Origin: Candidatus Aenigmatarchaeota archaeon
Lineage (GTDB): Archaea > Aenigmatarchaeota > Aenigmatarchaeia > QMZP01 > QMZT01
Reading direction: 5' to 3'
Assembly: GCA_043808015.1 (NCBI GenBank)
Contig: JAZDFI010000008.1
Coordinates: 13,271-77,270, forward strand
Length of the DNA stretch: 64,000 nt
Every line of letters starts with the position of its first letter. Position 1 is the first letter of the stretch. Of this stretch, positions 46,401 to 47,992 are shown piece by piece. The translations under genes were made by a program, and so were the position numbers. The notes beneath the pieces were generated by a model. That model was not told where the DNA came from. It did no database searches and was given only the letters and a program-made list of their open reading frames with translations.

Positions 46401-47992
46401 ATTCCGGCTGATCCTGCCGGAGGTCACTGCTATTCGGATATGACTAAGCCATGCAAGTAATGGGTTAAACCATTGCGTAAAGCTCAGTAACACGTAGTTA
46501 ACCTGCCCTTGGGCCTGCCACAATCTCGGGAAACTGAGGCTAAAGACAGATGGGCAATAAAATCTGGAATGATTTATTGCTGAACTAAGGATGGGACTGC
46601 GGAAGATTAGCTTGTTGTCAGGATAAAAACCTGACAAGGCGATAATCTTTACGGGCCTTGAGAGAGGTAGCCCGGAGATGGATTCTGAGACAACAATCCA
46701 GGTCCTACGGGACGCAGCAGGCGCGAAACTTTCCCAATGCACGAAAGTGTGAGGAAGATATCTGGAGTGCTCTCTCTTAGGAGGGGGCTTTTCTGGAGTC
46801 CAGACCGCTTCAGGAATAAGGGGTGGGTAAGACGGGTGCCAGCCGCCGCGGTAATACCCGCGCCCCGAGTGGTGACCGCGATTATTGGGCTTAAAGCGTT
46901 CGTAGCCGGTTTTGTAAGTCCCCAGTGAAATCGATTGGCAAACCAATCGGCTTGCTGAGGATACTGCATTACTTGGGACCGGGAGAGGTTAGAGGTACTC
47001 CAGGGGTAAGGGTAAAATCTTATAATCCTTGGGGGACCACCTGTGGCGAAGGCGTCTAACTAGAACGGATCCGACGGTGAGGGACGAAAGCTAGGGGAGC
47101 GAACCGGATTAGATAACCGGGTAGTCCTAGCTGTAAACGATGCCTACTAGACATCGGAAATCTCAAGGGGGTTTTCGGAGTCGGAGGGAAACCGTTAAGT
47201 AGGCCGCCTGGGGAGTACGGTCGCAAGGCTGAAACTTAAGGGAATTGGCGGGGGAGCACACAAGGGGTGGAGGCTGCGGTTCAATTCGACTCAACGCGGG
47301 GAACCTTACCAGAGGCGACAGCAGTATGAAGGTCAGACTTAAGATCTTACCAGACGCGCTGAGAAGTAGTGCATGGCCGTCGTCAGTTCGTGCCGTGAGG
47401 TGTCGTCTTAAGTGACGTAACGAACAAGACCCACGCTTCATGTTGCTAACCAATTCTATTGGTGCACTCATGGAGGACCGCTGACGATAAGTCCGAGGAA
47501 GGTGTGGTCGACGGCAGGTCCGTATGCCCTGAATCCTCTGGGATACACGCGGCCTACAATGGATGGTACAATGAGATGCGACACCGAAAGGTGAAGCTAA
47601 TCTCGAAAACCATTCCCAGTTCAGATCGAGGGTTGCAACTCACCCTCGTGAAGCCGAAATCCCTAGTAGTCGCTGGTTAGCATCTAGCGGCGAATAAGTT
47701 CCTGCTCCTTGCACACACTGCCCGTCAAGCCATCCGAGTGAAGACTTGGTGAGGTTTTTCTTTCGAGAAAGATCGAACCAAATTTTTGCAAGGAGGGCTA
47801 AGTCGTAAAGTGACGAGATGGGCAATTTGAGGGATTCCACAAGAATCCTTATGACAGCTAGAAGTGTGCGTCTTAAACGAAAGAATCATGCCTATGGTAT
47901 GGATTCGATCTACGCTACTCTAGTGTAAAATATCATCTCGTCACCCGATAAACAAGGTAACCGTACGGGAACGTGCGGTTGGATCACCTCCT
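46401..47992 (+). rRNA. 16S rRNA (highly divergent), containing a ~144-nt insertion near the 3' end
   Basis: 5' ATTCCGGCTGATCCTGCCGGAGG. Also GTGCCAGCCGCCGCGGTAATAC, ATTAGATAACCGGGTAGTCC and GCACACACTGCCCGTCA. 3' end GGATCACCTCCT. Confidence 0.9.
47809..47952 (+). other. ORF-less insertion (probable archaeal intron) in 16S between AAGTCGTAA and CAAGGTAACC
   Basis: The conserved AAGTCGTAACAAGGTA is split. The insert is bounded by an 11-bp inverted repeat, GTGACGAGATG...CATCTCGTCAC. Boundaries are good to about 2 nt. Confidence 0.6.

Follow-up and report, generated by a model that had tools for sequence, protein, structure and literature searches.

A 16S rRNA gene of an Aenigmatarchaeota archaeon with U at position 1400 and a probable bulge-helix-bulge-type intron near its 3′ end

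The window analyzed here is a stretch of 64,000 nucleotides from a Candidatus Aenigmatarchaeota archaeon (contig JAZDFI010000008.1), and its positions 46401-47992 on the forward (+) strand hold an archaeal small subunit (SSU) rRNA gene, which scores 1344 bits over positions 1-1478 of the Rfam model RF01959 (gathering threshold 50), departs from near-universal bases at several positions and is interrupted close to its 3′ end. The RF01959 match stops at 47839 and not at 47992, because a 144-nt insert divides exon 1 from exon 2, and Infernal forced the final ~40 model positions into this insert with low posterior probability. The true 3′ end, GGAUCACCUCC, was read directly at 47992, and the bacterial SSU model independently matches helix 45 at 47957-47981. 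Exon 1 terminates in AAGUCGUA (47807) and exon 2 begins with ACAAGGUAACCGUA (ACAAGGUAACCGUACGGGAACGUGCGGUUGGAUCACCUCC, 47952). The features of the gene and its operon are as follows, those within the 16S gene being given in E. coli numbering.

46401-47992, +: 16S rRNA gene, intron included (exon 1 46401-47807, exon 2 47952-47992)
47116, +: A at position 795 (C to A) in the 790 loop, from the model alignment; private to the window sequence
47387, +: U at position 1069, partner of A1106 (C-G to U-A), the pair being marked as compensated by Infernal
47418-47432, +: 1100-1114 region, UAACGAACAAGACCC, from the model alignment, carrying G1106A and G1108A
47418, +: C1100U, in a variable column
47424, +: G1106A, in a helix
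47426, +: G1108A, unpaired
47697, +: C1378A, GAAUAAGU, recurrent in the phylum
47719, +: U at position 1400 (C to U), placed by the model alignment in the unpaired column between pairs 1399-1504 and 1401-1501
47808-47951, +: 144-nt intron-like insert between A1499 and A1500, its boundary ambiguous by 1-2 nt (A runs) with the product unchanged
44161-45639, -: prolyl-tRNA synthetase (ProRS) gene upstream of the 16S gene, recognized by Pfam, homologues and conserved ProRS-16S synteny
48693-51828, +: 23S rRNA gene of the same operon (Rfam RF02540, 2477.5 bits)

The ProRS gene served as a handle independent of 16S, by which the 16S genes of relatives could be fetched without selecting on 16S itself. 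Its homologues reach 92% identity, and all of the named closest ones belong to "Candidatus Aenigmarchaeota/Aenigmatarchaeota." The relatives found in this way are L001 (a 1.1-Mb contig), L002/L003, L004 (16S 5′ half only), L005/L006, L129, and L131, where L-numbers denote loci of relatives fetched for comparison. The neighborhood of ProRS, a Na+/H+ exchanger and a permease, together with its adjacency to the rRNA operon, is conserved (L001-L006, L129, L131), and the order ProRS, 16S, tRNA-Ala, 23S is common to the relatives. The window 16S is 88-94% identical to Aenigmatarchaeota loci. We consider it probable that the region is a single functional 16S gene of an Aenigmatarchaeota archaeon of the DPANN superphylum, in which U1400 and the changes in the 1100 region are lineage signatures and the insert is an intron of the bulge-helix-bulge (BHB) type.

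The disputed columns were placed by Infernal at the highest posterior probability ("*"), and the E. coli numbering, which we take from primer coordinates (1392R = 1392-1406, 806R = 787-806, 1492R = 1492-1513), agrees with the way in which the model pairs its columns. For T47719, the covariance-model alignment and a count from G1392 = 47711 give the same column, 1400. In this model-based check the bases and columns stay where a first-pass annotation of the sequence had put them: A47116, which it had noted as a difference, falls at position 795, the 1100 region deviates from the standard motif by reading GAACAAG at 1104-1110, and the 1492R site is split by the insert. The deviation from near-universal bases that it had reported is real as to the bases themselves, but A795 alone is truly unusual. 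Both U1400 and the motif of the 1100 region are the norm of the clade, an outcome that the first-pass annotation had itself named as refuting their novelty.

Around position 1400 the window reads GCACACACUGCCCGU, aligned against the consensus GCACaCACCGcCCGU, with U in the unpaired 1400 column. That this base stacks on the P-site wobble pair, as stated in the first-pass annotation, is borne out by the literature: in the Pyrococcus 30S initiation complex the C1400-equivalent base stacks on the C34:G3 pair (PMC7005279), and the same stacking has been described for bacteria (PMC2709574). Position 1400 is often called universally conserved (e.g., PMC2709574). With U at 47719 the window falls outside the class defined by a universally conserved C stacking on this pair, and all five informative relatives selected through ProRS (L001, L002/3, L005/6, L129, L131) likewise have U1400. 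An exact-match scan for the 21-mer CCTTGYACACACTGCCCGTCA over one genome per GTDB species (185,579 species) returned U1400 in at least 120 genomes, all in 16S context; among the matches listed 46 are archaeal (44 of them DPANN) and 74 bacterial. Grouped by record label and 16S similarity, the U1400 genomes among the matches listed are distributed as follows.

Aenigmatarchaeota: 12
Woese-, Pace-, Nano-, and Parvarchaeota: 28
Micrarchaeota: 3
Altiarchaeales: 1
Other archaea: 2
Rickettsiales / Alphaproteobacteria: 24 (including Rickettsia, Tisiphia, and Megaera, with complete chromosomes)
Candidate Phyla Radiation (CPR) / Patescibacteria: about 30 (12 by label plus most of 18 otherwise labeled)
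Capsulimonadaceae / Armatimonadota: 9
Planctomycetota: 5
Dependentiae: 3
Margulisiibacteriota: 2
Myxococcota: 1

The 18 otherwise labeled genomes are named "Pseudomonadales," "Gammaproteobacteria," or "uncultured bacterium," and most of them share the CPR-type start of helix 44 (h44). Nine metagenome-assembled genomes (MAGs) titled "uncultured Pseudomonadales" or "Gammaproteobacteria" (L008, L012, L038, L042, L047, L058, L066, L105, L121) have a 16S 3′ region, CAAGCCAGCAAAGU, identical to that of records titled Patescibacteria/Paceibacterota, which points to mislabeled records or mis-binned rRNA contigs.

U1400 is thus a recurrent natural state, concentrated in small-genome lineages yet not confined to them. 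The decoding center, described in the first-pass annotation as atypical, does differ at base 1400, but the difference is clade-wide, recurs across these species-level genomes and is tolerated in E. coli. In E. coli delta-7 strains with only mutant ribosomes, C1400U grows at 1.4 against 1.7 doublings/h for the wild type with 53% reporter activity, C1400A is viable with 9% activity, and C1400G was not obtained (PMC2709574). C1400U has also arisen spontaneously, relieving the toxicity of orthogonal 30S subunits and lowering mRNA engagement (PMC8986856). The base at 1400 is a pyrimidine without a pairing partner, and in the P site it stacks on the wobble pair tRNA-34:mRNA+3; the C-to-U swap, the mildest substitution tested in E. 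coli, would keep both ring size and stacking. U1400 has been fixed repeatedly, mostly in small-genome lineages of symbionts and parasites; with stacking preserved well enough, drift or some unseen compensation may have allowed this in organisms that grow slowly and have small populations. We infer that it is tolerated or nearly neutral here. Positions 1498-1504 are canonical in the window clade once the insert is removed. Many Woese-, Pace-, and Nanoarchaeota with U1400 carry GUCGUCACAAGG or GUCGCCACAAGG (A1499C, U1498C), opposite 1400 in the decoding center. Among the U1400 genomes, 18 Woese-, Pace-, and Nanoarchaeota read AAGUCGUCACAAGG (A1499C; L009, L011, L014, L015, L017, L024, and others) and six read AAGUCGCCACAAGG (U1498C with A1499C; L036, L050, L052, L089, L094, L102). 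No description of the natural distribution of U1400 was found in full-text searches of the literature, and these at least 120 species-level genomes, concentrated in reduced-genome lineages of both domains, offer natural "mutants" for the study of P-site wobble stacking.

In the 1100 region the window reads CGUAACGAACAAGACCC, aligned against GgcAaCGagCGAGACCC. The motif listed above for 1100-1114 is found in all informative relatives and in most Aenigmatarchaeota examined, GAGCGAG being retained in L033 and L100. A1106 always goes with U1069 (CAGUUCGUG, in sequences with GAACAAG) and G1106 with C1069 (CAGCUCGUG, in sequences with GAGCGAG), a pattern by which U1069-A1106 qualifies as a compensated pair. 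GAACAAG itself is typical of the clade. Position 1378, which was missing from the first-pass annotation, has A also in L033, L118, and L100, and T in L120. Taken together, U1400, the U1069-A1106 pair and A1108 are inherited lineage signatures and not private oddities.

The insert between A1499 and A1500 has homologues of 87-173 nt at the same site in L001/L122, L002/3, L005/6, L007, L021, L043, L062, L095, L108, L118, and L129, whereas the intron-less Aenigmatarchaeota L033, L071, and L100 read AAGTCGTAACAAGGTAGCC or AAGTCGTAACAAGG there. Its predicted elements are the following.

47802-47805, +: exon GUCG (1494-1497), forming a 4-bp central helix with intron CGAU at 47946-47949 in the minimum free energy (MFE) fold
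47806-47808, +: 5′ bulge UAA with the predicted 5′ cleavage site, invariant and unpaired in 11 of 11 sequences
47809-47821, +: 5′ strand of a 13-bp inner helix (partner 47933-47945), which stacks directly on the 3′ strand
47826-47856, +: kink-turn (K-turn)-like hairpin, made of UUUGA, a 7-bp stem (47831-47837 with 47843-47849), the bulge UAU (47850-47852), and GA (47853-47854)
47857-47861, +: 5′ strand of a fourth helix (partner 47920-47924), with compensatory changes in 4 of 5 pairs
47946-47952, +: intron CGAU (47946-47949) followed by the 3′ bulge AAA (47950-47952) with the predicted 3′ cleavage site, from the predicted fold and covariation

The same four helices were obtained by RNAalifold on an alignment of 11 sequences. 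Standard pairs occupy 93.7% of the cells, against 32-51% in controls slid by 1-3 columns, and both-side changes are seen in 16 pairs, against 3-8 in the slid controls; the observed covariation was reached in none of 500 shuffles. The core of the BHB motif, two 3-nt bulges on opposite strands with a 4-bp helix between them, is the geometry that the archaeal splicing endonuclease recognizes, and it is present and invariant in the 11 sequences. By RNAalifold and pair counts, the central helix is paired in 100% of cells, with G-U alternating with G-C, and the inner helix in 97%, with compensatory changes in 5 of its 13 pairs. If the cuts fall after the second nucleotide of each bulge, as we take them to do, excision gives GUCGUA+ACAAGG, which is the sequence of the intron-less L033, L071, and L100. 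The insert is best read as an archaeal BHB-type intron in a relaxed form, and hence as a removable intron-like element whose excision restores the universal sequence, not as a change to the mature rRNA. If the tRNA-splicing endonuclease cut the transcript and RtcB joined the ends, the product would be the universal GUCGUAACAAGG, in which the G1401-C1501 and C1399-G1504 pairs are restored and 1494-1497 become free for their pairing with 1404-1407, at the top of h44. Since the 3′ end of the intron would hold the exon strand 1494-1497, the top of helix 44 should be unable to form before excision, and it may be speculated that the intron acts as a maturation checkpoint. The splicing endonucleases of DPANN are reported to have an extra loop associated with relaxed substrates, or cleavage of relaxed motifs, and with disrupted tRNA genes, and to accept the relaxed form (PMC5829648); a relaxed form fits both this loop and the need of the present genome for intron removal in tRNA genes. 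L075 (Aenigmatarchaeota B30_G1) has a different insert of 51 nt at the same 16S site (AAAGCCTTTTACAAAAAGGCTTTAGCCAAAAGGGTAAGGGGCTTCGACAA), which is not alignable with the 87-173-nt family.

The insert has no open reading frame, and the segments GAGAUGGGCAAUUUGA and NAUGACAGCUA in its interior are nearly invariant, while the helix beside the splice sites varies freely. Between these two segments lies the K-turn-like hairpin, in which all seven stem pairs covary. The pattern UGA-[7-bp covarying stem]-NNU-GA recurs in 10 of 11 sequences with the bulge UAU, GAU, or AAU, and in L007, L021, and L043 it includes GAUGA, as in a C box. At the level of pattern, the hairpin matches the K-turn, the motif bound by L7Ae. 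A box C/D guide RNA in the intron, suggested by UGA...GAUGA, was considered and rejected, a terminal D box or terminal CUGA being absent; apart from the candidate guide segments themselves, nothing in the window is an antisense target for them. The one near-match is a same-sense copy of the conserved intron segment GAGAUGGGCAAU (47815-47826) within the 16S body, CAGAUGGGCAAU (46547-46558), with 11 of 12 positions identical, probably a coincidence, as about 0.3 such matches are estimated to arise by chance.

The departures in the bases admit of other explanations. A decaying or non-functional rRNA copy under relaxed constraint is suggested by several near-universal positions deviating together (795, 1108, 1378, 1400), but its Rfam score of 1344 bits lies within the 1252-1381 bits of the relatives, its helices are kept through compensation, all deviations but that at 795 are common to relatives with syntenic operons, and the functional motifs (530 loop, A790, G926, A1492/A1493, h45, and the anti-Shine-Dalgarno 3′ CCUCC) are intact, so that we hold decay to be highly improbable. 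Nor is there an excess of private substitutions that would signal errors or a pseudogene: in a 13-sequence 16S alignment the window is no outlier, with one private change at columns invariant in the 12 other sequences, where close relatives have 0-7 (3 in L002, 6 in L007), and because such changes are no more numerous than in relatives the gene is neither error-ridden nor decaying. The single private change is A795, where the window reads GAUUAGAUAACCGGGUAG aligned against GAUUAGAUACCCggGUAG. All relatives examined have C at this position, and when 241 million metagenome records were scanned for the 22-mer with A795, GGATTAGATAACCGGGTAGTCC, a single contig matched exactly, that of an archaeon with no more than 77% identity. 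A795 is therefore very rare and a singleton for the lineage, either a recent tolerated mutation or a base-call error. These same facts favor a sequencing or assembly error at 47116; yet the window 16S is not otherwise error-rich, private substitutions are to be expected where the nearest relatives are only 90-94% identical, and in E. coli the C795A mutant grows almost as fast as the wild type (1.6 against 1.7 doublings/h), its reporter activity not being reported (PMC2709574). An error here is quite possible, though we lean somewhat the other way. In L007 and L033, inserts of ~70 nt interrupt the 16S 790 loop between GAUUAGAUA and AUACCC, 1-2 bases from 795. As for U1400, instead of being neutral it could retune the P-site wobble or the handling of initiator tRNA, as an adaptation or with compensation, in connection with the reduced tRNA and modification repertoires of symbionts. 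Such retuning would account for the repeated fixation in DPANN, CPR, Rickettsiales, and Dependentiae, for the co-occurrence with 1498/1499 changes across the helix in Woese-, Pace-, and Nanoarchaeota, and would accord with the measurable effect of C1400U on the behavior of the E. coli ribosome. However, U1400 is found also in the 4-Mb genomes of Capsulimonadaceae and in those of Planctomycetota, no covarying partner position is seen in the window clade, where 1498-1504 is canonical after excision, and drift in small populations accounts for this distribution equally well; retuning thus seems unlikely.

For the insert, the alternatives to a protein-spliced BHB intron are a degenerate or self-splicing group I derivative, an unligated intervening sequence leaving a fragmented 16S, or a retained expansion segment. 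In their favor, SSU/1498 holds group I introns in other DPANN (PMC6125680), and L120, a MAG labeled Nanoarchaeota with 80% 16S identity, has a group I intron at this very site (4807-5101, -; RF00028, 70 bits), which ends in G followed by AACAAGG and serves as a positive control. Moreover, the outer helix of the strict BHB motif is missing, and by sequence reading the window exon GUCGU could pair with the intron GUGAC in a P1-like manner. Relatives do not conserve this P1-like pairing, but in them the helix formed with the 3′ end of the intron covaries. A group I intron was rejected for the window: at E<=1 the insert matches none of the Rfam families, and 47640-48010 gives no hit to the group I model, and where a group I intron has a 5′ exon U paired to G in P1 and a final G, the last intron base here, with exon 1 ending at U1498, is A, directly before exon 2. 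At 87-173 nt the inserts are also shorter than the 253-position RF00028 model and the 293-743-nt group I introns at SSU/1498 in DPANN. In the ribosome structure A1499/A1500-C1501 lies inside the P site and mRNA channel, so that retention of an insert between A1499/A1500 and C1501 would be expected to disrupt the decoding center. These alternatives are in our judgment quite unlikely, and one site is therefore occupied in related lineages by introns of two different mechanisms, the L120 intron being of group I and the window family most probably of BHB type. A bolder proposal is one that we would advance only as a long shot. In it the inserts of 87-173 nt would be a family of structured mini-introns, so far undescribed and passed on vertically, which has an L7Ae-type K-turn, keeps the 1494-1497 strand of h44 sequestered until splicing, acts as a checkpoint in late 30S maturation and offers a concrete case for the evolutionary link that has been proposed between group I and BHB introns; U1400 would separately be a possible functional retuning of the P site, recurrent in symbiont lineages.

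Several points weigh against the reading of the gene that we prefer. The U1400 scan, tied to consensus flanks, is a lower bound, from which neither a frequency nor a split between C and U within DPANN is derivable. In E. coli, C1400U makes ribosomes less active and less engaged with mRNA (PMC2709574; PMC8986856), and because of this cost the neutrality of U1400 in this lineage is an assumption. An independent assembly of the same species, which would check A795, was not found, two window proteins not being on record, and the closest ProRS contig, L127, begins at the ProRS gene and lacks the 16S. An outer exon-exon helix, between exon 1 upstream of GUCG and exon 2 CAAGG..., was not found in the MFE fold or by RNAalifold, so that the 3′ site is a bulge in the relaxed sense only and differs from the strict hBHBh′ form. 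In the window the inner helix opens with an A·C mismatch, where 10 of 11 sequences have A-U or G-C, and splicing itself is predicted from the fold and its covariation.

The consequences for detection were counted as mismatches to common primers.

515F-Y: 0 mismatches
806R variants: 1 mismatch, internal
1391R / 1392R: 1 mismatch, internal
Archaeal 1100R: 3 mismatches
1492R: 7 mismatches on the gene, located at the 3′ end of the primer, and none once the sequence is spliced

The under-detection that the first-pass annotation foresaw for common primers should accordingly be modest, 1492R-type primers and archaeal 1100R being the only ones expected to fail. V4 surveys should still detect the organism and near-full-length amplicons with 1492R should not, whereby full-length 16S surveys of this kind on DNA templates would miss this Aenigmatarchaeota clade. 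Automated rRNA callers may also cut the 16S gene ~150 nt early, as Infernal did here, and the anti-Shine-Dalgarno end may be hidden.

Two further genes of the window also carry introns or inserts.

48084-48216, +: spacer tRNA-Ala(UGC) with non-canonical inserts in the D-loop and T-loop (Rfam tRNA 25.2 bits, below threshold)
54658-54766, +: second tRNA, with a 38-nt intron in the anticodon loop (Rfam 58.7 bits; loop CUCUU), probably tRNA-Lys-CUU

In tRNA-Ala the D-loop insert is ~31 nt long and that of the T-loop ~29 nt, and Rfam mis-assigns the acceptor 3′ strand, which comparison with L005 and L001 shows to be UCGGUCCA; L001 has both inserts and L005 the T-loop insert only. Their presence implies that the genome depends on intron removal outside position 37/38. 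ARAGORN reported no tRNA in the window, though at least two intron-bearing tRNAs are present by Rfam. The 16S genes of Aenigmatarchaeota are rich in introns as well: L095 has inserts at ~1068 and ~1092, and inserts encoding LAGLIDADG proteins occur near position 1092 and elsewhere (L005/L006 7827-8498, L131 2054-2803). Apart from these genes, two stretches of the window are low in GC (8001-10000 at 0.40 and 20001-22000 at 0.37, against a window average of ~0.50) and may be islands or foreign DNA.

The findings on this 16S gene overturn nothing in current understanding, and its features can be set beside known systems. Full-text searches found no description of the Aenigmatarchaeota 16S intron element, which is possibly an undescribed family of small introns. 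If spliced as predicted, it would mark a new 16S intron locus inside the decoding center, with endonuclease-type and group I introns side by side at one site. Compared with the engineered E. coli ribosomes carrying C1400U and C795A (Shoji, Abdi, and Fredrick, 2009, PMC2709574; Volkov et al., 2022, PMC8986856), the same substitutions stand at the same positions, and those tolerated there match those here, C1400G being unobtainable; however, C1400U in E. coli is a laboratory mutant with a measurable cost (53% activity, reduced mRNA engagement), while in nature whole phyla have U1400 as their fixed state. The natural U1400 of Rickettsiales, CPR/Patescibacteria, and Dependentiae lies in an identical 21-mer in 16S context, but in a different domain and with an independent origin.

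The archaeal BHB introns in the 16S genes of Thermoproteales, Desulfurococcales, and Aigarchaeota (Jay and Inskeep, 2015, PMC4496867) likewise sit in a conserved stretch targeted by primers, have the same 4-bp helix with bulges at the exon-intron junctions, and restore the universal sequence on excision, and some members of the present clade carry LAGLIDADG genes in other 16S introns (L005/L006, L095, L131). The published loci of such introns are 374, 548, 722, 781, 803, 901, 907/908, 919, 978, 1093, 1205, 1213, and 1391, with none at 1498-1500 (PMC4496867). The present insert differs from them in its host, a mesophile-type DPANN archaeon and not a thermophilic crenarchaeote, in its relaxed motif without the outer helix, and in its conserved interior with a K-turn-like hairpin and no open reading frame. 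SSU/1498, on the other hand, has been described as a new site of group I (IB4) introns in Nanohaloarchaeota and Micrarchaeota (Nawrocki, Jones, and Eddy, 2018, PMC6125680). These occupy the same site, within the ambiguity of the UAA run, and belong to the same superphylum, but they are 293-743 nt long, whereas the window insert, at 144 nt, has no group I match and no final G, and its junctions are of the endonuclease type.

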